From Minisyncoccota bacterium (lineage in GTDB: Bacteria; Patescibacteriota; Minisyncoccia; Phycocordibacterales; JAACPR01), in assembly GCA_041674225.1 (NCBI GenBank), contig JBAYWG010000002.1, forward strand, positions 34,841 to 98,840: a stretch of DNA of 64,000 nucleotides, read 5' to 3'. Below, piece after piece: positions 3,312 to 37,478 of the stretch. The notes beneath the pieces are model-generated. The model had not been told where the DNA came from, did no database searches, and saw only the letters and a list, made by a program, of their open reading frames with translations. The translations under genes and the position numbers were made by a program. Numbering within the stretch: position 1 is the stretch's first letter; every line of letters begins with the position of its first letter.

Positions 3312-4634
3312 ATGGATAAAGTAATTACACGTTTTCCACCATCTCCAACAGGGGAAATTCACATCGGCAACATGCGGACAATGTTGTTTAACTATCTTTT
3401 TGCAAGACATTTCAATGGTGAGATTGTTTTGAGATTCGAAGACACTGATAAAGAGAGAAGTAAAAAAGAATTCGAGCCATTTATCCTTGATGGATTAAAA
3501 GCTGTTGGTTTAAGTTTTGATCACGGACCTTTTCGACAATCTGAGAGAAATGATATTCATAAAGAAAAATTATTAGAATTGATAAAAAAGGGACTTGCTT
3601 ACGAGGCGGAGGATTCTTCGACTGGTTCTGGAAAAGTTGTTAGATTTAGAAATCCAAATAAAACTATAATTTTTGATGATCAAGTTAGAGGTCCTATTTC
3701 TTTTGACTCATCTATTTTTGAAGATTTTATTATCGCGAGAAATATTGATAATCCAATTTATCATTTCGCTGTGGTAGTGGACGACATGGAAATGGGTGTG
3801 ACTCATGTGATCCGAGGAGAAGAACACCTTACAAGCACACCGCGACAAATTCTTTTGCTAGAAGCGCTTGGTGCAAAAGTTCCTTTGTATGCGCATCTTC
3901 CTTTGATTGTGGGTGATGATAAAAAGAAATTATCAAAAAGGCACGGCGCCACTTCTGTGAGCGGATTTCTTTCACAGGGTTATTTACCAGAAGCACTTGT
4001 GAATTATTTAGCATTTCTTGGTTGGAATCCGGGTGGAGAAAGAGAAATATATTCTCTCGAGGAATTGGTTGATATTTTTGATTTGAGCAGAGTGGGTAAA
4101 AACCCTGCGAAGTTTGATTACAATAAATTGAATGATATCAATTATCACTACATGATTAATTTGTCTGACGAGGACTATCGTGAAAAACTATTGAAGTTCT
4201 TAAACGAAGAATACACAAAACTTTTTGAAGAAAATGTAGAAGCGTCAAATTTGATTATAAAAGAAGTTATAAAAACACGAATCAAAAAATTTGCAGATAT
4301 TAAAACTATGATTTCAGAAGGTGAACTTGATTATTTTTTCAAAAAACCAGATATGAATTTGGAAATAATTTGTTTCAAAGATAATTCTCTTGAAAAGACA
4401 AAAGAAACATTAAAAATTACAAGAGATGTTTTGGAAAAAATTCCGGAAGATAAATGGAGTATTGATTTTATTAAAGAAAATCTAAATACACTCTTTGCAG
4501 AAAACGGTGTTGGAGCTATCTTGCATCCATTGCGTGTAGCTTTGTCTGGGAAAAAACAATCACCGGATCCTTTTACACTCAGTTATCTTTTGGGTAAAAA
4601 AGAAGTTTTGGAGAGATTGGATGCTACTATATAA
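3312..4634 (+). CDS. gltX: glutamyl-tRNA synthetase
   Basis: HIGH motif (PSPTGEIHIGNMRT) and KMSKS variant (KLSKRHG); class I GluRS architecture. Confidence 0.9.
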   Translation: MDKVITRFPPSPTGEIHIGNMRTMLFNYLFARHFNGEIVLRFEDTDKERSKKEFEPFILDGLKAVGLSFDHGPFRQSERNDIHKEKLLELIKKGLAYEAEDSSTGSGKVVRFRNPNKTIIFDDQVRGPISFDSSIFEDFIIARNIDNPIYHFAVVVDDMEMGVTHVIRGEEHLTSTPRQILLLEALGAKVPLYAHLPLIVGDDKKKLSKRHGATSVSGFLSQGYLPEALVNYLAFLGWNPGGEREIYSLEELVDIFDLSRVGKNPAKFDYNKLNDINYHYMINLSDEDYREKLLKFLNEEYTKLFEENVEASNLIIKEVIKTRIKKFADIKTMISEGELDYFFKKPDMNLEIICFKDNSLEKTKETLKITRDVLEKIPEDKWSIDFIKENLNTLFAENGVGAILHPLRVALSGKKQSPDPFTLSYLLGKKEVLERLDATI

Positions 4635-4638
4635 ATAA

Positions 4639-6228
4639 ATGATAAAAATTACAAAACTCTCAAAGTATTTCGGTGAAAAGACGGTCTTGAATAAGATTTC
4701 TTTTAATATTGAAAAAGGGAACAAGATTGCTTTAACTGGATTCAATGGTTCCGGAAAAACTACTTTATTAAAAATTTTGGTTGGAGATGAGACTTACTCA
4801 AACGGTTTATTTGAGTTACAAAAAAATGTAAAAAGGGGATTTGTTCCTCAAGATCCGAGTGGTCACGGTAAATTAAAAGTGGTTGATTTTCTTTTAACTG
4901 CGAAAAAAGAATCTGAAGATAAAAAAGATTTTTTAAGAAGAGTGGATATTATGTTTGCTGGATTTATGCTTTCAGAAAATCTTAAGGATAAAAAAATCGG
5001 TGAATTAAGTAGTGGGCAGAAAACAAAAATATTTTTAACAAATTTTCTTTTACAAGATGTTGATTTACTTTTGCTAGATGAGCCCACAAATAATCTGGAT
5101 CTCCCTGCGCTTATTTGGTTAGAGTATTACCTTCAAAATTTCAAAGGTGCTTTCATTGTTGTATCCCATGACAAAACATTTTTAGATAATGTGACTAATA
5201 AAGTTTTTGAAATAGATTGGCACGATCATTCTTTGAGAATTTCAAATGCAAAGTACTCGAATTATTTGATGGAACGACAAATTGAGTTTAATAGTCTGAA
5301 TCAAAAGTATTCACAACAAAGAGAAGAGGTTTCTCGTCTTAAGGGTGTTGTGGCTGCTAAACAAGAGAAAGGGCTCCTAGGGGCAAAATGGAAGAGTGGA
5401 GACAACGATAAAATGCTTCAAGGCTTTAAAAGAAATCGTGCGGGGTATTCTTTAAATGATGCAAAAGTGACTATGAACCGAATCAAGAGAATGGACTTTG
5501 TTGAAAAACCAAAAGAAAGAAATGAGCTTTCTTTAAAAATTGAATCACAAATTAATTCACCCGCTTTGAACATCGCTTTGAAAGATGTTATTTCTGGATA
5601 TAAGGGAGATTTTATTTTAGGTCCGATAAATCTAGATGTTCGTTATGGAAAAAGAATTTGTATCGTTGGACCAAACGGAGTTGGAAAAACTACAATTTTG
5701 AAAACAATTACAGGGATGCTAAAAAATATTAGTGGAATTGTGAGTGTAGATAGCGGAGTTCATTTTGGGAATTTTATGCAAGAACACGAAAATCTTCCAC
5801 AAGATAAAACTCTACTGGCTTTTTTGAAAGATCATTTAGGAGTTGAAAAAGAATTAGTTCACAATCATTTAACTAAATTTGGTTTCAGTGATGAAGACAT
5901 AAAATCTAAAATTGGAAATTTGAGTCCTGGAGAAAGAGCTCGACTTCTTTTTGCATATTTTACAGCGACAAATGTGAACACATTGATCTTAGATGAACCA
6001 ACAAATCATTTAGACATTGAAGCCGAATTGGCTCTGGAAGAATCTTTGAAAGATTTTATGGGAACAATTATCGCCGTGTCTCATGATAGAAGTTTTGTCA
6101 AAAATGTTCATTTCGATGAATACTATGTTTTGTCTGATAGAGGTTTAGAAAAATTGATTGATTTTAATGATTATATTGTGGAGATGGAGAAGCGTTCGAA
6201 GAAACTTATCAGAATGTTAGAAAAATAA
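4639..6228 (+). CDS. ABC-F family ATPase (tandem ABC domains, no TMD; EttA/Uup-like)
   Basis: Two Walker A motifs (GFNGSGKTT, GPNGVGKTT) and two LSGGQ-like signatures (LSSGQKTK, LSPGERAR). Confidence 0.85.
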   Translation: MIKITKLSKYFGEKTVLNKISFNIEKGNKIALTGFNGSGKTTLLKILVGDETYSNGLFELQKNVKRGFVPQDPSGHGKLKVVDFLLTAKKESEDKKDFLRRVDIMFAGFMLSENLKDKKIGELSSGQKTKIFLTNFLLQDVDLLLLDEPTNNLDLPALIWLEYYLQNFKGAFIVVSHDKTFLDNVTNKVFEIDWHDHSLRISNAKYSNYLMERQIEFNSLNQKYSQQREEVSRLKGVVAAKQEKGLLGAKWKSGDNDKMLQGFKRNRAGYSLNDAKVTMNRIKRMDFVEKPKERNELSLKIESQINSPALNIALKDVISGYKGDFILGPINLDVRYGKRICIVGPNGVGKTTILKTITGMLKNISGIVSVDSGVHFGNFMQEHENLPQDKTLLAFLKDHLGVEKELVHNHLTKFGFSDEDIKSKIGNLSPGERARLLFAYFTATNVNTLILDEPTNHLDIEAELALEESLKDFMGTIIAVSHDRSFVKNVHFDEYYVLSDRGLEKLIDFNDYIVEMEKRSKKLIRMLEK

Positions 6229-9822: not shown

Positions 9823-10464
9823 ATGAATTATTCTGATAAAAAAATTATAGACATATCTTTACCACTTTATTCTGCGACAATTGTTTATCCAAACAACGTT
9901 CCACTTGAGATTGAGACTCATGCCCACATGCCAGAATCTACAACTCATTTATCAAAAATCACTATGGGAACACATACTGGGACTCACATAGACGCTCCGA
10001 TGCACGCTGTGCAAGGTGCTAATACTCTAGATCAAATCCCGCTAGAAACTTTTGTTGGATTGTGTCGGGTGGTAGATGTGACACATCGCGGCCCAGGCGA
10101 ATCTGTGAAAAAAGGGGATTTAGGGGATGTGGTAAAAGGTGAAAGAATTTTGATAAAAACTTCTAATTCTGTTCGAGGTTTTAAAGAATTTTATAATGAT
10201 TATGTATATCTAGACGGAGATACTGCGGATTGGTTGGCTGATATTGGTGTAAAATTAGTTGGTATTGATTATCTTTCAATAAAACAAAAAGGTTCAAAAG
10301 ATCAAAGACCCCACACTTCACTTTTAGAAAAAAACATCCCAATTATAGAAGGGATAAATTTAAATCATGTTGGAGCCGGTCTGTATGAATTGATTTGTTT
10401 GCCTTTAAATTTTGTCGGAGTAGAGGGAGGACCAGCCAGAATAATTTTACGAGAATTAAATTAA
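9823..10464 (+). CDS. cyclase-family metal-dependent hydrolase (kynurenine formamidase-like)
   Basis: HTGTHIDAPMH motif characteristic of the putative cyclase / KynB fold. Confidence 0.7.
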   Translation: MNYSDKKIIDISLPLYSATIVYPNNVPLEIETHAHMPESTTHLSKITMGTHTGTHIDAPMHAVQGANTLDQIPLETFVGLCRVVDVTHRGPGESVKKGDLGDVVKGERILIKTSNSVRGFKEFYNDYVYLDGDTADWLADIGVKLVGIDYLSIKQKGSKDQRPHTSLLEKNIPIIEGINLNHVGAGLYELICLPLNFVGVEGGPARIILRELN

Positions 10465-19096: not shown

Positions 19097-20794
19097 TTGG
19101 TCATGATGACTCAAACAGAAGCACTAAAAATATTGAAAATGGGAAAGAATGTTTTTTTGACGGGTCCTGCCGGATCAGGAAAAACATATATTCTAAATGA
19201 GTATATTAATTTTTTGCGACAGCACGGTGTGGATGTGGCGGTGACTGCTTCTACTGGTATTGCTGCAACTCACTTAAAGGGAACTACAATCCACTCTTGG
19301 GCTGGGATCGGAATTAAAGATTTTCTAACTGATTATGATTTAGATAATTTGCAACAGAAAGAATATTTGTGGAAACGTTTTGAAAAAACAAAAGTTTTGA
19401 TTATTGATGAAATTTCGATGTTGAGTTCATCTACTTTGGATTGTATAGATAGAGTCGCAAAAATTTTTAAAAGAAACGAAGAACCATTTGGAGGATTGCA
19501 GATTATTTTTTCCGGAGACTTTTTTCAGCTGCCACCGATTGAAAAAAGACCAGTTTATAATGAGCAAACTATTTTTATGGATGAAGAGGAAAATTCTAGA
19601 ATTCCTTTTGCGTTTAAATCTAAAGCTTGGAAAGATTGTGATTTGCACACTTGTTATTTATCTGAACAATTTCGGCAAGAAGACAATGAACTTTCGACAG
19701 TACTTTCGGAAATTCGTGATGGAGAACTTTCGCAAAAATCTTTGGAAATTTTAACTAAAAGAATTATCAAAGAAGATAATCCTGATATTACAAAACTATA
19801 TACTCACAATATAAATGTTGATACTTTCAATCAGAAGAAACTAGAAAGTTTAAATACTGAAGGGAAAAATTATTTAATGATTGGAAAAGGGAAACCAAAT
19901 CTTTTGGATGCTTTAAAAAGAGGGTGTTTGGTACAAGAAAAATTAACTTTGAAAAAAGGTGCTTTGGTTATGTTTGTAAAGAATAATCCTATCGCTGGTT
20001 ACGTAAATGGAACTGTTGGAGAAATTATTGGTTTTGAAGAAGGTTATCCTGTGGTTCTTACAAAAAATGGTGAAAGATTTGTGGCTGCGCCTCAAAGTTG
20101 GGCGGTGGAAGAAGGTGATAAGGTTTTGGCAGAAATATCTCAGGTGCCTCTAAAACTAGCTTGGGCTGTGACAATTCATAAAAGCCAGGGAATGACTCTA
20201 GATAAAGCGATTATAGATTTGTCGAATTCTTTTATTGAAGGACAGGGTTATGTGGCACTTTCGCGGGTAAAAACTTTGGATGGATTATTTTTGAAAGGTT
20301 TTAATAAGATGGCTGTGGCTGTGCACGATGAAATATTAAATTTAGATAAAGATTTGAGAGATCATTCAGATAAGCTTTGTATGTATGTGAATGGATTAGA
20401 GGTTGATGAATTTCAAGATGAACACCAAGAATTTTTTGAAAAAATTGGTGCAAAGAAACATAAAGTAAAAGATGAGGTGGGTGAAAAACTAAGCACTTAT
20501 GAAATTACTCACAAAATGATTAAGTCTAAAAAATCTTTAGAAGAAATGGCAGAAGAAAAAGTGGTAAAAGTTTCGACAATTTTAGCTCATATTGAAAAGC
20601 TTTTGGAAGAAAAAGTTATTACAAAAAAAGATATTGAATATTTAAAGCCAGATACAAAAGAATTTAATAAAATGTTTAAAGAGATTAATGTGGTTTTAAA
20701 AAAAGTTGGTGCGGATAAACTAACTCCTATTTTTAATGCACTAGATGGTAAATATACATTTGAGGAAATAAAGTTTACGAAGATTTTTTGTTAA
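19097..20794 (+). CDS. Pif1/RecD-like SF1 DNA helicase with C-terminal extension
   Basis: Walker A GPAGSGKTY; LIIDEISM Walker B; RecD-like motifs. Confidence 0.75.
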   Translation: MVMMTQTEALKILKMGKNVFLTGPAGSGKTYILNEYINFLRQHGVDVAVTASTGIAATHLKGTTIHSWAGIGIKDFLTDYDLDNLQQKEYLWKRFEKTKVLIIDEISMLSSSTLDCIDRVAKIFKRNEEPFGGLQIIFSGDFFQLPPIEKRPVYNEQTIFMDEEENSRIPFAFKSKAWKDCDLHTCYLSEQFRQEDNELSTVLSEIRDGELSQKSLEILTKRIIKEDNPDITKLYTHNINVDTFNQKKLESLNTEGKNYLMIGKGKPNLLDALKRGCLVQEKLTLKKGALVMFVKNNPIAGYVNGTVGEIIGFEEGYPVVLTKNGERFVAAPQSWAVEEGDKVLAEISQVPLKLAWAVTIHKSQGMTLDKAIIDLSNSFIEGQGYVALSRVKTLDGLFLKGFNKMAVAVHDEILNLDKDLRDHSDKLCMYVNGLEVDEFQDEHQEFFEKIGAKKHKVKDEVGEKLSTYEITHKMIKSKKSLEEMAEEKVVKVSTILAHIEKLLEEKVITKKDIEYLKPDTKEFNKMFKEINVVLKKVGADKLTPIFNALDGKYTFEEIKFTKIFC

Positions 20795-29461: not shown

Positions 29462-29493
29462 TACTATGCGGACTTGTACTAGTCCGAACTAGT
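29462..29493 (-). repeat. R0: degenerate copy of the tRNA-3'-end-like direct repeat (tactatgcggacttgtactagtccgaactagt)
   Basis: Aligns to consensus tgctccgcggacttgggctagtccgaaccagt. Confidence 0.6.
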
Positions 29494-29806: not shown

Positions 29807-29903
29807 CTGTTTTCGGTTGGTTGATTGTGAAAAGTAAAAAAATCTTTCAAATAAATAATAACACTCTATAATTATTTGTCAAATATTTAATCAACAGACA
29901 TGT

Positions 29904-29919
29904 GTTGGTCCGAACCAGT
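29904..29919 (-). repeat. R1: truncated repeat (ttggtccgaaccagt)
   Basis: 3' half of the consensus repeat only. Confidence 0.45.
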
Positions 29920-30211: not shown

Positions 30212-30243
30212 TACTCCGCGGACTGAGACTAGTCCGAACCAGT
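30212..30243 (-). repeat. R2 repeat (tactccgcggactgagactagtccgaaccagt)
   Basis: Matches the consensus. Confidence 0.65.
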
Positions 30244-30734: not shown

Positions 30735-30766
30735 TGCTCCGCGGGCTTGAGCTAATCCGAACTAGT
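30735..30766 (-). repeat. R3 repeat (tgctccgcgggcttgagctaatccgaactagt)
   Basis: Matches the consensus. Confidence 0.65.
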
Positions 30767-30789
30767 GTGGTGGTGTAGGAAATAAAAAA

Positions 30790-31168: not shown

Positions 31169-31200
31169 TGCTCCCTTTAGTGGACGAGTTTAGAACTCAG
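31169..31200. repeat. R11: degenerate repeat (tgctccctttagtggacgagtttagaactcag...gggttg)
   Basis: Partial match to consensus; about 80 percent match to R12. Confidence 0.4.
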
Positions 31201-31296: not shown

Positions 31297-31719
31297 ATGA
31301 GTAAACCATCTATGACACCCGTTGGAGCATATTACTTGTTCATATTTTTTATTGTTGGTGTTGCATTTGTATTATTTTTACATTTAGCACTAGTTCAAGA
31401 GGTTGTATTTTTTCAAAACATATATACAAATGGAATTATTATTTTGAGTTTTGTGATGTTATCCCTAGTTGTCCCTTTTAATATTAAGGAAATCATAGGA
31501 CAAAAAATAATCCCAATTTTTAAAATGTTTATAGCAATTAGAGGTGGTAGAGGAAGTTTTGACTTATTTGAATCAGAAGTGCAAGAACGAGCGAGGTTGC
31601 GCGTTGAATTGGATAGTAAAATAAAATCCAATACATTACTTTATTCTGTTTTTGTTGTACTTATTATTATCTCAATAATCGGCTTTATTGGTTTAATGAT
31701 TTATTCCGCAACTTTTTAA
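31297..31719 (+). CDS. membrane protein, hypothetical (only plus-strand cassette)
   Basis: GGAGG RBS 13 nt upstream; 4 TM helices. Confidence 0.5.
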   Translation: MSKPSMTPVGAYYLFIFFIVGVAFVLFLHLALVQEVVFFQNIYTNGIIILSFVMLSLVVPFNIKEIIGQKIIPIFKMFIAIRGGRGSFDLFESEVQERARLRVELDSKIKSNTLLYSVFVVLIIISIIGFIGLMIYSATF

Positions 31720-31731
31720 ACACTTTACTAT

Positions 31732-31786
31732 GCTTTACAATTACTCGGATACAGGGACGCATTTAGAACTTTTGATTGGGTTAGTT
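31732..31786. repeat. R12: degenerate repeat (ggacgcatttagaacttttgattgggttag)
   Basis: Direct repeat of R11 flanking the plus-strand gene. Confidence 0.4.
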
Positions 31787-32440: not shown

Positions 32441-33154
32441 TCAGAACTTCATCGAAATTCCGACACCACCAGCGATCTCGCTGTTGCCCTGGCCTGTGAG
32501 GGCTCGGGTGGAGAAGAACAACGTTGTGGTGTCATTCAATTCCAGGTTCAGCGTAAGATTGCTGCCGAAGTAAAGTCCAGGAGTGACTCCGAACCCGTCG
32601 TCATAAGACATAAACGGATTGACGTCGACTGAGACTTTATCAGCTACGGGAAAACGAGCATTGATGCCCGTGGAAATGTTCCAACCATTTCCAAGGAAAT
32701 TGTTACTGGTGTGGTAGTAGCGAGGTTGGATATACCAGCTCGTCGCAACTTCATCCCAGACAACAAAATCTTTTCCGAAAGTGACGTGAGCTGTGACGAT
32801 GTCGTCCCAGACCGATGCAGTTGGATTCACATTCCAGATACCAACTCCAGTGTTGAAGTTGAAACCGAGGATTTTGTGAGCCCAACCGAGGTTGAGATCA
32901 ATTTCGTCGCCCGCCGATGTTCCGCCGAGATCTTCAGAAGACCATATGCTTGCGTTGAAGCCGTGTGGCAGATTGATGACCAGAAGCGATTGAAGGCTGG
33001 GCTGGTCACTGACAACGACGGGGACTTGAAACAGCAGGTATTTGTCCCACACGGATGTGGAAACAAGACCTGAAAATTCGTAGCCCATTTCTTCAGCTTT
33101 GGAGGTGTTGCAGAAACCGATTGTAAGTATCACGATGGTAAAGAACTTTTTCAT
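32441..33154 (-). CDS. secreted beta-rich protein, OMP beta-barrel-like (signal peptide, C-terminal Phe)
   Basis: MKKFFTIVILTIGF signal; alternating hydrophobic pattern; ends ...ISMKF. Confidence 0.45.
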   Translation of the reverse strand: MKKFFTIVILTIGFCNTSKAEEMGYEFSGLVSTSVWDKYLLFQVPVVVSDQPSLQSLLVINLPHGFNASIWSSEDLGGTSAGDEIDLNLGWAHKILGFNFNTGVGIWNVNPTASVWDDIVTAHVTFGKDFVVWDEVATSWYIQPRYYHTSNNFLGNGWNISTGINARFPVADKVSVDVNPFMSYDDGFGVTPGLYFGSNLTLNLELNDTTTLFFSTRALTGQGNSEIAGGVGISMKF

Positions 33155-33434
33155 TTGTACAATAGAGTAGGTTTGATTTTGGTGTAGATTCACAAGTTAC
33201 TGATCACTCTTTGAAAGAGTCAGTTATGAAGCTACTTCCAGAATCAAAATAACTATATATTCCAACGAAATTTACTAATATTATAGCAATAAATATGCAT
33301 TATGTCAAGTCTATGTAGTGTAGGTCAAAGACGGGTTTTAAAATGCTATTGTAAAAAGTTCGAACCCTATTTACAGGTACGAGATTTCAGACTGTTGACT
33401 CTATGTTTATCAACGTGTTTTAGACGTTTTATTT

Positions 33435-33466
33435 TGCTCCGCGGACTTGCACTGGTCCGAACCAGC
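33435..33466 (-). repeat. R4 repeat
   Basis: tgctccgcggacttgcactggtccgaaccagc. Confidence 0.65.
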
Positions 33467-33491: not shown

Positions 33492-33977
33492 TTACTCAAC
33501 AATCTTAATTCTGTCAGAAGAAGGCATATCTTTTGATGTAACCTCAATAACATCTGAAGGTTCAACTTCTTCATAGGACCTCCATTCCATTGAATCAGTA
33601 GTTGCCACTTGGTCTCTTTTATATGGTTCGAAGTTGTTTTTATCAAAAACATACACAAAGCCTTTTTTATCTTTTACCTCTTTTAATACGTCCTCTGAAG
33701 AAACTCTAAATTCCGCATTACCGTCTCTTATGCCAAAACCACTTGTGTGATTTATAGAAACATTTTCTCTATTTATAAGCGCTCTAAAAGTTGCAAGTTC
33801 TGCATATGGAGTTGCTGAAACTGCTGGATTACCATCTAAGGTTGTTTCATCTGGTTTTGACCAATCAGGAACATGTCTTCCTTGTCGTGGTTCTAAGGAT
33901 TTGATGCTTCCATTAGGCGAACCATGAAATACATGTTTTCCTTCTTGCTCAAGTTTTTTAAGTTTTTCTATGGACAT
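33492..33977 (-). CDS. cassette gene, hypothetical (161 aa)
   Basis: Driven by a copy of the tRNA-proximal promoter flank. Confidence 0.45.
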   Translation of the reverse strand: MSIEKLKKLEQEGKHVFHGSPNGSIKSLEPRQGRHVPDWSKPDETTLDGNPAVSATPYAELATFRALINRENVSINHTSGFGIRDGNAEFRVSSEDVLKEVKDKKGFVYVFDKNNFEPYKRDQVATTDSMEWRSYEEVEPSDVIEVTSKDMPSSDRIKIVE

Positions 33978-33989
33978 AATTTAATTTTT

Positions 33990-34060
33990 TATACAAAAAG
34001 TATACCAAAGTTCGAACCTTCGGTCAGGGGTTAAAAATATATGTTTTAAAATAAAGACGA
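33990..34060 (-). promoter_or_regulatory. copy of the tRNA-Asn downstream flank carrying promoter CTGACC-17-TGgTATACT
   Basis: About 85 percent identical to 37330..37400. Confidence 0.5.
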
Positions 34061-34062
34061 AA

Positions 34063-34094
34063 TAAAGTGCTCCGCGGACTTGGGCTAGTCCGAA
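34063..34094 (-). repeat. R5 repeat (exact consensus)
   Basis: tgctccgcggacttgggctagtccgaaccagt. Confidence 0.7.
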
Positions 34095-34112
34095 CCAGTA
34101 TTGTGGTGTGAA

Positions 34113-34170: not shown

Positions 34171-34473
34171 TTAGTGCGGTAGCCGCTTATAACCAGTTTT
34201 CTTGTTTAGGATGCGATGGTAATTGGTCGATGTTGGATGAGGAATGACTCTCACCTCCACTAGTTCGAATTCAGGAACGCTGAGGAGGATGTTGTGCTCA
34301 ACTTCGGTCACCATCAATCTGACGGTCGTATTAAAACCACTACCACGGCTGTTAATCGAAGAAAACATGACCTTTATTGTTTCTCCAACTCGTGGCACTG
34401 CGTTTCTTTTTACATCAACGATATTGTAATACCACAAACCGTTTGCAAAAAGGTTTAATTGAACTCGGTACAT
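34171..34473 (-). CDS. cassette gene, hypothetical (100 aa)
   Basis: ORF between R5 and R6. Confidence 0.4.
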   Translation of the reverse strand: MYRVQLNLFANGLWYYNIVDVKRNAVPRVGETIKVMFSSINSRGSGFNTTVRLMVTEVEHNILLSVPEFELVEVRVIPHPTSTNYHRILNKKTGYKRLPH

Positions 34474-34586: not shown

Positions 34587-34618
34587 TGCTCCTCGGACTT
34601 GGGTTGGTCCGAACCAGT
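34587..34618 (-). repeat. R6 repeat
   Basis: tgctcctcggacttgggttggtccgaaccagt. Confidence 0.65.
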
Positions 34619-34642
34619 GTTGCGGGGTAGGTAAATAAAAAG

Positions 34643-34681: not shown

Positions 34682-35017
34682 TTAATCAATGATTTCGAAT
34701 ACGAAATTCTGAGCTTCATCGGCGTCGCCGTCTGGTCCCATGACGCATTGACACGCGCCGTCTTTTAAAGGACCTTGAATCACGAAACCGTTTTGAAGTT
34801 GAATTTCAATACCCCAAGCTAAATTTAAACTGTTATCTTCGTCTGAATTTTTATCGTGCCGATAAAAATTGAGACCAGATACGGTCGAAACTATTGTTCC
34901 AATGCTGTGTTCCTCATGACGAGTTACAGAACATTTTTTCCCAATGATTTCTGATGCTGACGGAAGACCAGCTTCGGTTAGTTCAGAATTAAGAACTTGC
35001 AAGTTTTGGTTTTTCAT
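34682..35017 (-). CDS. cassette gene, hypothetical (111 aa)
   Basis: ORF between R6 and R7. Confidence 0.4.
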   Translation of the reverse strand: MKNQNLQVLNSELTEAGLPSASEIIGKKCSVTRHEEHSIGTIVSTVSGLNFYRHDKNSDEDNSLNLAWGIEIQLQNGFVIQGPLKDGACQCVMGPDGDADEAQNFVFEIID

Positions 35018-35073: not shown

Positions 35074-35105
35074 TGCTCCGCGGACTTGTGCTAGCTCGAA
35101 CCAGT
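35074..35105 (-). repeat. R7 repeat; abuts the stop codon of the GNAT gene
   Basis: tgctccgcggacttgtgctagctcgaaccagt. Confidence 0.65.
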
Positions 35106-35558
35106 TTATTTAGATAAATCTTTAATTATGTGAGTTGCTTTATGTTCCTCAGTTTTTTCAAATCCAAGAGATTCATAGAGTGAAATTGCGACTGGATTTT
35201 TTGTAGAAAGACGCAGGGATGTGAAGTGTTGTTTTGCTCTGTTTATAATGAGCTTCATTAAAATTTTTGATAATCCTAATCCTCTATATTTTTTCATAAT
35301 ATAAACATGACGCACCCTACCAACTTCTGGATTTTCAGTATAAGGGTCTTGATTTAAACCACCTAATCCAATGATTTCATCATCTATTGTAAGTCCCCAA
35401 AGTTTTTCACTTGGTTTTGAGAAAGTGTTTACACCACTTCGCCATTCATCGATAGTTTTTTGAATAAAAAGGTCTCCATCAAGTGTAGATTCGTTAGCCA
35501 TATCTTGAAGTATTGATATATTCGAATCATTAATTTCTATAATTTTATAGTCAGGCAT
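35106..35558 (-). CDS. GNAT-family N-acetyltransferase (AAC-like size)
   Basis: Acetyl-CoA motif RGLGLSKILMKLI; 150 aa; TGaTATAAT 6 nt upstream (leaderless). Confidence 0.6.
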   Translation of the reverse strand: MPDYKIIEINDSNISILQDMANESTLDGDLFIQKTIDEWRSGVNTFSKPSEKLWGLTIDDEIIGLGGLNQDPYTENPEVGRVRHVYIMKKYRGLGLSKILMKLIINRAKQHFTSLRLSTKNPVAISLYESLGFEKTEEHKATHIIKDLSK

Positions 35559-35580: not shown

Positions 35581-35612
35581 TTGCACCGCGGACTTGGGCT
35601 AGCTCGAACCAG
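35581..35612 (-). repeat. R8 repeat
   Basis: tgcaccgcggacttgggctagctcgaaccagt. Confidence 0.65.
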
Positions 35613-35632
35613 TTTGTAAATAAAAACACGAA

Positions 35633-35667: not shown

Positions 35668-35865
35668 TCAGATGAAAAGCATGACAATGAACGGAGCAAT
35701 TAAGGCGCCCGTTACCAAAGAGAGTGTCCAAGTTGTTTCCTGTGTCCATTTGCGGTTTTTGTCGATGGACTTGATGGTGAGACCAACAACCAAAGCAATG
35801 ACGATAATGAGAACTAGGCACAAAACTTGAAAACCAAATGACGATGGTGTTCCTGATGGTAGCAT
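35668..35865 (-). CDS. small membrane protein (65 aa) with strong RBS
   Basis: AGGAGG 8 nt upstream of the ATG; two TM helices. Confidence 0.5.
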   Translation of the reverse strand: MLPSGTPSSFGFQVLCLVLIIVIALVVGLTIKSIDKNRKWTQETTWTLSLVTGALIAPFIVMLFI

Positions 35866-35945: not shown

Positions 35946-35977
35946 TGCTCCGCGGACTTGTGCTAGTCCGAACCAGT
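35946..35977 (-). repeat. R9 repeat
   Basis: tgctccgcggacttgtgctagtccgaaccagt. Confidence 0.65.
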
Positions 35978-36011
35978 GTGGTGGGGTAGGAAAAGACAAT
36001 TGGGATGGTAA

Positions 36012-36722
36012 CTACTTTATAAACTCTTGTATCATTTTCTTCGTGTATGAGTCCACTTTGTCCTTATTTTCTAAAAGGTGTTGTTTACAATATCCAGCAT
36101 CTTTGTTCTTATAAAAAATATCGATTAACTGGGATTCTTCTTCGTTAGCTTTTTGTTTTATGTTTGTGTAAGAAAAAGGGAAGTGTTCATTTCTCTTGAG
36201 TTGAGAATAGTAAATTATTCTCATGATTCCTTTGAGATGATATTGCACAAAACCATCTCCTACATTTGTTGAATCATCCCATTGGTCTCTGATTATTTTC
36301 TTTATTTCCAGACTAATTAATTCATCTGGTATAGCAGGGTTGTTAGTAAAGTCTTCAGTTGAATATATTTTTCCGAATACTTGCTTCCAGTCTTTCATAT
36401 CTGAAAGTAATATTCTTGGATGTATCACTGTGGTAATTGAGCTATCTTTTCCGACACCTTCTTTTAGCTCGTCTTCTCTGATTACATTAAATCCAAAATA
36501 TTTGAAATCATCAAAACATTCATTAATCTTTTCTTTAATAGAAGATTGGTCAATCGAATTCTCTGACTTAACTATTGCGATAATATCTATGTCACTTGTT
36601 TCAATATCAAACTCTCCAGTAGTTATTGAGCCCCATAGATATGCTGAAAGTAATCCATCTTTCTCATATTCTTGAAAGAATTTATTTAAATGCTCCTCTA
36701 GATTGTTTTTATCGAATTTCAT
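36012..36722 (-). CDS. nucleotidyltransferase, ANT(3'')(9)/Lnu-like
   Basis: NTase motif YLWGSITTGEFDIETSDIDIIAIV (compare AadA LYGSAVDGGLKPHSDIDLLV); helical C-terminal domain; TATAAT 6 nt before ATG. Confidence 0.6.
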   Translation of the reverse strand: MKFDKNNLEEHLNKFFQEYEKDGLLSAYLWGSITTGEFDIETSDIDIIAIVKSENSIDQSSIKEKINECFDDFKYFGFNVIREDELKEGVGKDSSITTVIHPRILLSDMKDWKQVFGKIYSTEDFTNNPAIPDELISLEIKKIIRDQWDDSTNVGDGFVQYHLKGIMRIIYYSQLKRNEHFPFSYTNIKQKANEEESQLIDIFYKNKDAGYCKQHLLENKDKVDSYTKKMIQEFIK

Positions 36723-36776
36723 TTTGACATTATAGCAAAGTCTTAAAACTCTACTAATAAAATCGGATTTTTCAAT

Positions 36777-36808
36777 TGCTCCGCGGACTTGGGCTAGCTC
36801 GAACCAGT
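36777..36808 (-). repeat. R10 repeat
   Basis: tgctccgcggacttgggctagctcgaaccagt. Confidence 0.65.
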
Positions 36809-36819
36809 TTGGAATGTCA

Positions 36820-37329
36820 TTAGTCCTGTATCTCCATTAAAACAGAGTCCATTACTTCTCTGGGTTCCATATTTGTAGTATCAATTACCTTGAAACCTAA
36901 GTGGCTACGATTTTTAAAAATAGAAATATTATTTCTAGCTCGTTCTTCTGTTAGGTCACCGTTATTTTCTTGAGTTCTTTTTACTACTCTTTGAAGAGCA
37001 ATATCTGGATTAGCATGTAATTGAAATTTATAACAATGAATTTTTCTATCTTGAGCAAGAGTCGTGTAGAAATCAATCTCTTCCTCCGTTTTAAATGGAT
37101 TCTCAACTATTACAGATAATCCAAGGTCTAAGTATTTTGCTGCCATTACCATGGTTACTTCTCGGGCTATTTGATTATCTTGAATTCCTCTTTCAAAGTC
37201 AGATATAAACCTTTTAATTTTATCAAAACCAACGATTGCTGTTCTAGGAAGTTCTTTTGATAAGGATTTTGATAGTGTGGTCTTTCCAGCTCCAGACATT
37301 CCGTCTAATAGTATTAATTTTTGTTTCAT
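36820..37329 (-). CDS. P-loop kinase, chloramphenicol-phosphotransferase-like (AAA_33 family)
   Basis: LILLDGMSGAGKTTLSKSL...AIVGFD resembles CPT MIILNGGSSAGKSG...LAFGVD; 169 aa. Confidence 0.55.
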   Translation of the reverse strand: MKQKLILLDGMSGAGKTTLSKSLSKELPRTAIVGFDKIKRFISDFERGIQDNQIAREVTMVMAAKYLDLGLSVIVENPFKTEEEIDFYTTLAQDRKIHCYKFQLHANPDIALQRVVKRTQENNGDLTEERARNNISIFKNRSHLGFKVIDTTNMEPREVMDSVLMEIQD

Positions 37330-37400
37330 ATAAAAAGTATACCAAGGTTCGAACCTTCAGTCAGGGGTTAATAATATATGCTTTAAAATAAAGGTGTACT
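37330..37400 (-). promoter_or_regulatory. promoter immediately downstream of tRNA-Asn (CTGACC-17-TGgTATACT) driving the kinase gene
   Basis: Minus strand cccctgactgaaggttcgaaccttggtatactttttatATG. Confidence 0.45.
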
Positions 37401-37404
37401 AAAG

Positions 37405-37478
37405 TGCTCCCCCGGCAGGATTCGAACCTGCGACCCATCGCTTAACAGGCGATTGCTCTACCGCTGAGCTACAAGGGA
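37405..37478 (-). tRNA. tRNA-Asn (anticodon GTT)
   Basis: Minus strand TCCCTTG-TA-GCTCAGCGGTAGAGC-A-ATCGC-CTGTTAA-GCGAT-GGGTC-GCAGGTTCGAATCCTGC-CGGGGGA-G; cloverleaf with U1-A72 and discriminator G as in E. coli tRNA-Asn. Confidence 0.85.

Follow-up and report, generated by a model that had tools for sequence, protein, structure and literature searches.

A tRNA-Asn-anchored cassette island in a Minisyncoccota genome, probably made by serine-integrase insertion

In a 64-kb stretch of a Minisyncoccota genome (the window), short genes are lined up beside a tRNA-Asn gene and are separated from one another by 31-nt sequences that resemble the 3′ end of a tRNA. We consider it probable that this arrangement is a cassette island anchored at tRNA-Asn and made by serine-integrase insertion. 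The argument is carried by a module that is duplicated between the tRNA flank and a distant repeat, by a constant 5-bp difference in the spacing of two motifs that tRNA and repeats have in common, and by large serine recombinase (LSR) genes that occupy the same junction in related genomes. From these comparisons we infer that an LSR acted on the array, where crossover took place, and in what order the events behind the two module copies occurred. The LSR family found at the junction in relatives is the most likely enzyme.

A repeat search of the window (family D4) aligned 33976-34073 with 37313-37410 over 98 nt, ungapped and at 85% identity, which bears out the original prediction that 37330-37400 and 33990-34060 are about 85% identical. 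Local alignment of the module flanks, with the tRNA and the repeat removed, gave 72 identities in 82 positions and a score of 62; dinucleotide shuffles scored 9.7 on average (sd 1.8, maximum 17), and the resulting z of 29.7 rules out low-complexity AT similarity as the source of the match between this main pair. Copy A (37313-37410, minus strand) adjoins the tRNA and consists of the tRNA trailer and a promoter, directly upstream of a kinase gene that starts at 37329. Copy B (33976-34073, minus strand) lies 3.3 kb from the tRNA, directly after the repeat R5 (34069-34099), which abuts it just as had been claimed; a 161-aa ORF starts behind it at 33977. The duplicated block overlaps tRNA-Asn by 4 nt only (GGAG). 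In their trailer-plus-promoter part the two copies are 89% identical to each other, compared with 74-83% to the distal copies of two related contigs (L007 and L005) and 67-71% to the copy that adjoins the L007 tRNA. The folding of either window copy was no better than that of shuffled sequences, and thus gave no indication of an RNA structure or terminator. A weaker third copy, said to lie at 33345-33380, shrank to a 12-nt match, AAAGTTCGAACC, at 33355-33366; extended alignments there reached z values of just 0.8-1.9, and the site is at best a badly decayed remnant. The module is therefore present at only 2, perhaps 3, of the 14 junctions in the window, and the remaining cassette leaders are unrelated to it, so that the duplication cannot serve as the direct evidence for the origin of all cassettes that it had been taken to be.

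The module follows tRNA-Asn elsewhere as well. The window gene, tRNA-Asn (GTT), occupies 37407-37478 on the minus strand (ARAGORN; Rfam RF00005, 69.9 bits) and is the sole tRNA of the window; to its right lie the core genes YggU-like, HPF, PPIase, fmt, def, priA and mreB. A module adjoins tRNA-Asn in L007 and also in L024, a more distant contig without any of the 31-nt repeats. Because it stands in this position in all three, including the array-less L024, the module is, in this clade, the sequence that natively follows tRNA-Asn on its 3′ side, and its description as the downstream flank of the tRNA holds. It is conserved in four other contigs in all, and in L007 and L024 a strong terminator hairpin separates tRNA from promoter. 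Additional copies directly follow repeats in L007 (five copies in total) and L005 (two). One L005 copy (4570-4687) has no detectable repeat beside it; all other aligned copies follow a tRNA end or a repeat. The distal copies of L007 and of L005 precede the same gene, DUF6790.

Two side observations concern this locus in relatives. A group I intron (Rfam RF00028) splits the anticodon loop of tRNA-Asn in L020 (2093-2376), L031 (9621-9877) and L030 (9592-9864), with scores of 80.8, 66.1 and 51.7 bits, respectively; ARAGORN misses these split genes, and the gene is intron-less in the window, L007, L024 and L028. In L024, which has no repeats, a homologue (73% identical) of a nucleotidyltransferase carried by one of the window cassettes lies at 787-1497, two genes from tRNA-Asn. 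It may be a resident tRNA-proximal gene that was recruited into a cassette, or the repeats may have been erased from this genome.

A promoter scan found a sigma-70-type pattern in both window copies of the module, in agreement with the promoter that had been proposed for the tRNA-Asn flank. Copy A carries CTGACT, a 17-nt spacer and an extended -10 of the form TG-n-TATACT (37336-37364, minus strand), and copy B carries CTGACC with the same spacer length and -10 (33999-34027, minus strand). The ATG in copy A comes 6 nt after the -10, so the predicted kinase mRNA would be leaderless or nearly so. The spacer of the copy A promoter holds a perfect palindrome, AAGGTTCGAACCTT (37344-37357), a half-site of which equals the tRNA T-loop motif; copy B has the same palindrome with one mismatch, AAAGTTCGAACCTT (34007-34020), and a third, decayed version, AAAGTTCGAACCCT (33355-33368), is found 68 nt from the repeat R4. 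When up to two mismatches were allowed and the centre TTCGAAC was kept intact, 37344, 34007 and 33355 were the only occurrences of this 14-nt palindrome in the 64-kb window. The tRNA T-arm matches it with 3 mismatches.

The 31-nt repeat, which reads GCTCCGCGGACTTGGGCTAGTCCGAACCAGT on the plus strand, occurs in 11 copies between 29463 and 36808, and two variants bring the number of such cores to 13. All are on the minus strand. Reading away from the tRNA, they are R10 (36778-36808), R9 (35947-35977), R8 (35583-35613), R7 (35075-35105), R6 (34588-34618), R5, R4 (33436-33466), a degenerate variant at 31743-31769 (GTTCTAA, 11 nt, TATCCGAGT), a variant at 31170-31196 (GTTCTAA, 11 nt, AAAGGGAGC), cores at 30736-30766 and 30213-30243, and degenerate cores at 29889-29919 and, leftmost of the array, 29463-29493. 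No core was found in the other 56 kb of the window. Dispersed repeats of the REP or MITE type were considered and set aside, as the copies are confined to 29.4-36.8 kb.

Two blocks are common to the cores and tRNA-Asn: the T-loop motif GTTCGRR, and the acceptor 3′ strand with the discriminator and two trailer bases (CCGCGGA-G-CA). The distance between them is 6 nt in 7 of 7 tRNA-Asn genes and 11 nt in 31 of 31 cores, the latter drawn from three diverged families (the window type, the L007 type and the L028 type). This constant addition of 5 bp identifies the cores as a separate class of site and not as decaying tRNA fragments. R5 illustrates the point: it has GTTCGGA, 11 nt and CCGCGGAGC, and beyond GCTCC it is only 32% identical to the tRNA of its own genome. 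Its description as a copied tRNA end accordingly fails, and we propose that it is an attP-type half-site. The 3′ end of the window tRNA (T-loop GTTCGAA, 6 nt, acceptor CGGGGGA, discriminator G, then CA) would, by the same comparison, be the corresponding attB-type left half-site. What survives of the predicted relation between the cassette repeats and the tRNA-Asn end is the GTTCGRR motif and the acceptor end CCGCGGAG-CA, which is identical in the cores and in the tRNA-Asn of L007 and L033; the cores are not copies of the window tRNA. The acceptor 3′ strand of the latter (37407-37413) reads CGGGGGA, as against the CCGCGGA of its 13 cores, which is the L007/L033 allele. This difference suggests an origin of the cassettes, or of their sites, in lineages whose tRNA carries that allele.

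The cores are unlikely to act as RNA. Rfam returned no tRNA-like match at any of them even at E ≤ 10, and the arms of an inner stem, CGGACT/AGTCCG, do not covary across core copies. Conservation at core junctions is limited to the left half; no motif that could represent a right half-site (B′ or P′) was found at any fixed offset in the cassette leaders. The two variant cores at 31170-31196 and 31743-31769 lie on either side of a gene for a membrane protein (31297-31719), the one cassette gene on the plus strand, and the first of these cores is 80% conserved in L003 (1720-1790), which points to a second core subfamily within the same array. Just outside most cores (35978-35995, 34619-34635, 30767-30782) there is a further motif, CTACCCCACCAC in the sense direction and GTGGTGGGGTAG on the plus strand, with equivalents in L002, L003, L009 and L028. 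It lies beyond the reach of about 25 bp expected of a serine-integrase half-site and could be the site of an accessory factor.

Between the cores lie single-gene cassettes of 0.35-0.8 kb, each with its own promoter. On the minus (sense) strand a unit is made up of a core, a -35 (TTGACA) at a variable distance of 2-8 nt from the core, a -10, one gene, often a terminator, the CTACCCCACCAC motif and the next core. The ATG often comes 6-10 nt after the -10 with no Shine-Dalgarno sequence (36722-36760, 37329-37341 and other starts), implying leaderless or near-leaderless cassette mRNAs. The tRNA-proximal cassettes, all on the minus strand, encode a P-loop kinase of the AAA_33/zeta-toxin-like type (36820-37329; Pfam), a nucleotidyltransferase (36012-36722; Pfam), a 65-aa membrane peptide (35668-35865), a GNAT acetyltransferase (35106-35558; Pfam) and proteins of 111 aa (34682-35017) and 100 aa (34171-34473) with no family match. 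The 161-aa ORF downstream of module copy B (33492-33977, minus strand) has no Pfam or PADLOC match, and a YgjV membrane protein is also among the array genes.

Pattern scans and protein look-ups revealed similar arrays in other Paceibacterota/Parcubacteria contigs: L001/L002/L020 (MAG JBEBBG010000007.1), L003/L009 (a 232-kb contig syntenic with the window), L005, L007/L011 and L028. Single weak matches in L004, L006, L008 and L010 from the metagenome scan were taken as chance. The gene content of the arrays is nearly non-overlapping between relatives. The only shared cassette is that of the nucleotidyltransferase, which is 80% identical between the window and L001/L020 and has different neighbours in the two. 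Its homology starts after the upstream core, takes in the leader that follows GGAGCA, and reaches as far as the downstream core, with which it ends. Homology that is bounded in this way indicates that a site travels with the gene upstream of it and that exchange takes place at the GGAGCA edge. A contig search for loci encoding the same proteins, which might have exposed strain variation within the species, returned only the same arrangement, on contigs broken at cores, and a scan of viral contigs for a phage or plasmid that carries the core gave GC-rich chance matches only. Independent assemblies of the same strain break at cores: of two Logan contigs, L012 begins at R10 and L013 near R8. Arrays of this kind are thus likely to be under-represented or fragmented in MAGs.

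The same junction is the entry point of recombinase-bearing elements in relatives. L020 has the syntenic tRNA-Asn followed immediately, at GGAGCA|TAGAAG..., by the 3′ end of an LSR gene. The element to which this gene belongs is about 7.5 kb long, carries the LSR and IetA/IetS, and extends from the tRNA end to a core (9911-9937); beyond it lie the nucleotidyltransferase cassette and eight more cores. We examined six LSR homologues, that of L020 itself and others at 55, 56, 61, 73 and 88% identity (range 45-88%). In five of the six (L020; L028, 61%; L030, 56%; L031/L032, 55%; and L033, 88%) the gene abuts the tRNA-Asn 3′ end at GGAGCA|TAG, and the exception, P0010 in L025, has a different context. 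The L028 locus keeps its synteny and has a core family of its own. GGAGCA| is also where the window module starts, at the same junction as the LSR elements of relatives. The protein has Resolvase, Recombinase and Zn_ribbon_recom domains and more than 1300 homologues at E ≤ 1e-20; the few with a named source are from Paceibacterota, Parcubacteria or Patescibacteria. The cargo of these elements includes defence genes: IetA and IetS in L020 (5618-9032; PADLOC, 1.7e-85 and 1.1e-62), a ResIII helicase, an N6/N4 methylase and an AcrVA2-like gene in L031 (19-3952), and an EcoO109I-like restriction enzyme and a methylase in L033 (1075-2696).

The window itself gave no recombinase of any kind by tblastn, Pfam or regex. 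A regex for HxxR...Y, together with Pfam matches of the flanking and locus ORFs, likewise detected no tyrosine recombinase in the window or the array loci. The pooled Pfam scan covered 49 window ORFs and gave the best 25 of 63 families, which makes it weak negative evidence, and for the far parts of the window the absence of tyrosine recombinases rests on the regex scan.

The geometry of tRNA and core matches that of attachment sites used by serine integrases. The motif bound by the zinc-ribbon domain lies at positions 16-24 of an attP half-site and 5 bp closer to the centre in attB, while the two sites do not differ in how the proximal region is bound (Rutherford et al. 2013, PMC3783163). The same 5-bp shift, with the proximal region shared, separates the 6-nt from the 11-nt spacing. 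If the centre is set at the GG of CCGCG|GAGCA, then TTCGAA occupies positions 12-17 for the tRNA and 17-22 for the cores, and GTCCGCG (positions 1-7) is identical in tRNA-Asn of the L007/L033 type and the cores. In an attP reconstructed for the L020 element, mirror positions 17-24 hold GGTTCGA on the left and TTAGACCC on the right (6 of 8 matches to TTCGAACC), for a single element and with a centre that was chosen afterwards. Conservation of the left half alone at core junctions is what would be expected of attR-type scars. Since the window tRNA has the acceptor CGGGGGA in place of the CCGCGGA of its cores, and must pair with its own 5′ strand, crossover would have fallen within the last 6 shared nucleotides.

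These comparisons suggest the following course of events. DNA would be inserted by site-specific recombination immediately after tRNA-Asn, within the shared block GGAGCA, the core serving as an attP-type half-site opposite the attB-type half-site of the tRNA. Each insertion would leave a 31-nt P-type core at its far end, beside the sequence that formerly followed the tRNA, and repeated events would stack core junctions with the newest nearest the tRNA. R5, module copy B and the 161-aa gene would then represent a former junction between tRNA and native flank, of the P|B′ type and attR-like, displaced by 3.3 kb through the insertion of six tRNA-proximal cassettes. Copy A would have come in as leader of the kinase cassette, the newest of the array, and its flank would have been captured in a donor genome, where an excision that ran from the tRNA end to a core farther downstream could take the native flank along; gene conversion or homologous exchange could give the same pattern. 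The prediction that cassettes arose by recombination at the tRNA 3′ end had the right idea in that module homology stops at this end, where recombinase-bearing elements join in relatives.

To our knowledge, canonical LSRs neither recombine attP with attL nor reuse attL as a target. Serial insertion at the tRNA would therefore need either a relaxed requirement for B′ or the second half-site, or regeneration of the target. Neither LSR remnants within the arrays nor internal cores within the LSR elements were found that could explain how the single-gene cassettes come to be deposited. More tentatively, and with doubts that outweigh our confidence, the system may be an equivalent of the integron that is run by serine recombinases. 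In it, tRNA-Asn would offer its 3′ end as the fixed acceptor, and the cassettes would each bring a promoter and no more than an attP-type half-site (with the additional 5 bp); visiting LSR elements would pick up, deposit and shuffle them by excision at one or another of the cores, with no need for a conserved second half-site, and the module would show how chromosomal genes become cassettes.

Four other explanations were weighed against serine-integrase insertion. The strongest of them, which we nevertheless think unlikely, regards the cores as recombination scars and the module as a portable promoter/operator leader, with GGTTCGAACC as the operator, that was spread by homologous recombination or gene conversion. 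It would account for a multi-copy module in front of unrelated genes at slightly varying distances from the ATG, with five copies in L007, for the operator-like location of the palindrome in the promoter spacer, and for the greater likeness of copies within a genome (89%, as against 67-83% across genomes), as concerted evolution would give. However, homology between copies ends at the boundary of tRNA 3′ end or core, the very point where LSR elements join; every aligned copy except that at 4570-4687 of L005 directly follows a tRNA end or core; and a portable promoter would have no need of the tRNA trailer that is part of the module, or of the tRNA terminator that is part of it in L007 and L024. 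Even less plausible, in our estimation, is an integron-like or tycheposon-like system whose tyrosine recombinase is encoded elsewhere in the genome, with the cores as attC-like or att core sites and the tRNA end as attI or attB. Co-oriented single-gene cassettes with a site at each 3′ end are an integron-like architecture, the cargo (GNAT, nucleotidyltransferase, kinase, small ORFs of no known family) is typical of integrons, a recombinase is likewise missing beside the arrays known as CALINs, and tyrosine integrases classically target the 3′ ends of tRNA genes, tandem arrays with partial tRNAs being described for tycheposons. Yet the window and the array loci yielded no tyrosine-recombinase motif or Pfam match, the only recombinase type at the junction, in five genomes, is serine, and the 31-nt cores have one conserved half, no R″/L″-L′/R′ symmetry of the attC kind and hairpin arms that do not covary. 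Nor does this explanation predict the 5-bp rule; we know of no constant shift of this kind in tyrosine-integrase sites.

An RNA role for the cores is very improbable. As tRNA-like 3′ elements, they would punctuate or stabilise cassette mRNAs by way of RNase P or RNase Z, in an array that grew by ordinary duplication, and they do resemble a T-arm plus acceptor 3′ strand and, on the sense strand, do follow each gene at its 3′ end. Several, however, are downstream of intrinsic terminators; there is no 5′ acceptor strand with which to form a minihelix, no Rfam tRNA match and no covariation between stem arms; and cassette-bounded homology between genomes and the association with LSRs indicate a role at the level of DNA. 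Chance resemblance of AT-rich sequence, for which one could cite the composition of the region and a third copy no better than chance, can be practically dismissed for the module in view of z = 29.7 for the main pair and its conservation in four other contigs.

Serine-integrase insertion, the reading that we prefer, also places the locus among known systems. It resembles the attP/attB sites of LSRs, as modelled for the Listeria A118/LI integrase (PMC3783163), in having the same two motifs with the distal one 5 bp farther out in the attP-type site, about 25 bp per half, a need for few identical crossover nucleotides and, in the related contigs, a recombinase gene beside attP and hence beside attL. 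It differs in that insertion is aimed at a tRNA gene, at its 3′ end, that many attP-type half-sites are stacked and that their partner halves are not conserved. The tRNA islands of Prochlorococcus tycheposons grow at the tRNA-proximal side, have partial tRNA copies between successive insertions, and carry tyrosine or large serine recombinases, most island DNA being recombinase-less, along with defence and niche cargo (bioRxiv 10.1101/2020.12.28.424599). As in such islands, partial tRNA-derived repeats separate variable gene blocks beside an intact tRNA-Asn, and recombinase-bearing elements are tRNA-proximal in L020, L028, L030, L031 and L033. The partial tRNAs of tycheposons are described as true att copies, however, whereas the cores have 5 additional bp and belong to regular promoter-gene-terminator-core units.

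Integrons and CALINs have in common with the window array co-oriented single-gene cassettes that each end in a site, variable content, and crossover at the far 3′ edge of the site. Unlike integrons, the array has own promoters in place of a shared Pc, a tRNA as anchor and a recombinase association of the serine type, and neither the window nor the array loci gave an adjacent IntI tyrosine recombinase. Nor do the cores, at 31 nt with one conserved half and no covariation, have the 57-141 bp and paired R″-L″/L′-R′ arms of attC. SCC and SCCmec elements at rlmH (orfX) are composite islands made by the CcrAB and CcrC large serine recombinases at the 3′ end of one conserved gene. Their tandem arrays include recombinase-less units between short direct repeats of the integration site, and their cargo is adaptive or defensive, as it is here. 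SCC units measure kb to tens of kb, and they differ from the cassette island in their protein-gene target, recombinase clade and host phylum.

CPR bacteria (Patescibacteria) have tiny genomes and few recognised mobile elements, and little is understood of the ways in which accessory and defence genes reach them. Our literature search found no description of cassette arrays, integrons, attC or serine-integrase tRNA islands in CPR, and an integration hotspot at the 3′ end of tRNA-Asn is apparently undescribed for these bacteria. The locus points to such a dedicated hotspot, where a widespread Paceibacterota LSR family delivers defence cargo (IetAS, restriction-modification) and small promoter-bearing cassettes pile up. 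The constant 5-bp relation of tRNA and core offers a multi-copy example from nature of the attB/attP geometry on which the directionality of serine integrases rests, and the predicted att sites of new integrases are of interest for genome-engineering tools. If cassettes were mobilised in trans through a half-site only, this would be a new mode of serine-recombinase action and also a convergent 'integron', with a visible route of cassette genesis, the capture of a tRNA flank.

Two minor observations concern the rest of the variable region. A 250-aa ORF at 32441-33193 has a signal-peptide-like N-terminus and a beta-strand-rich, porin-like composition, with no Pfam or PADLOC match; CPR bacteria are expected to be without an outer membrane, which makes a porin-like ORF odd. 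The far side of the region is bounded by a PIF1-like helicase gene both in the window (19097-20794) and in L020 (19579-20711), so that the flexible zone appears to extend over about 17 kb, from the helicase gene to tRNA-Asn.
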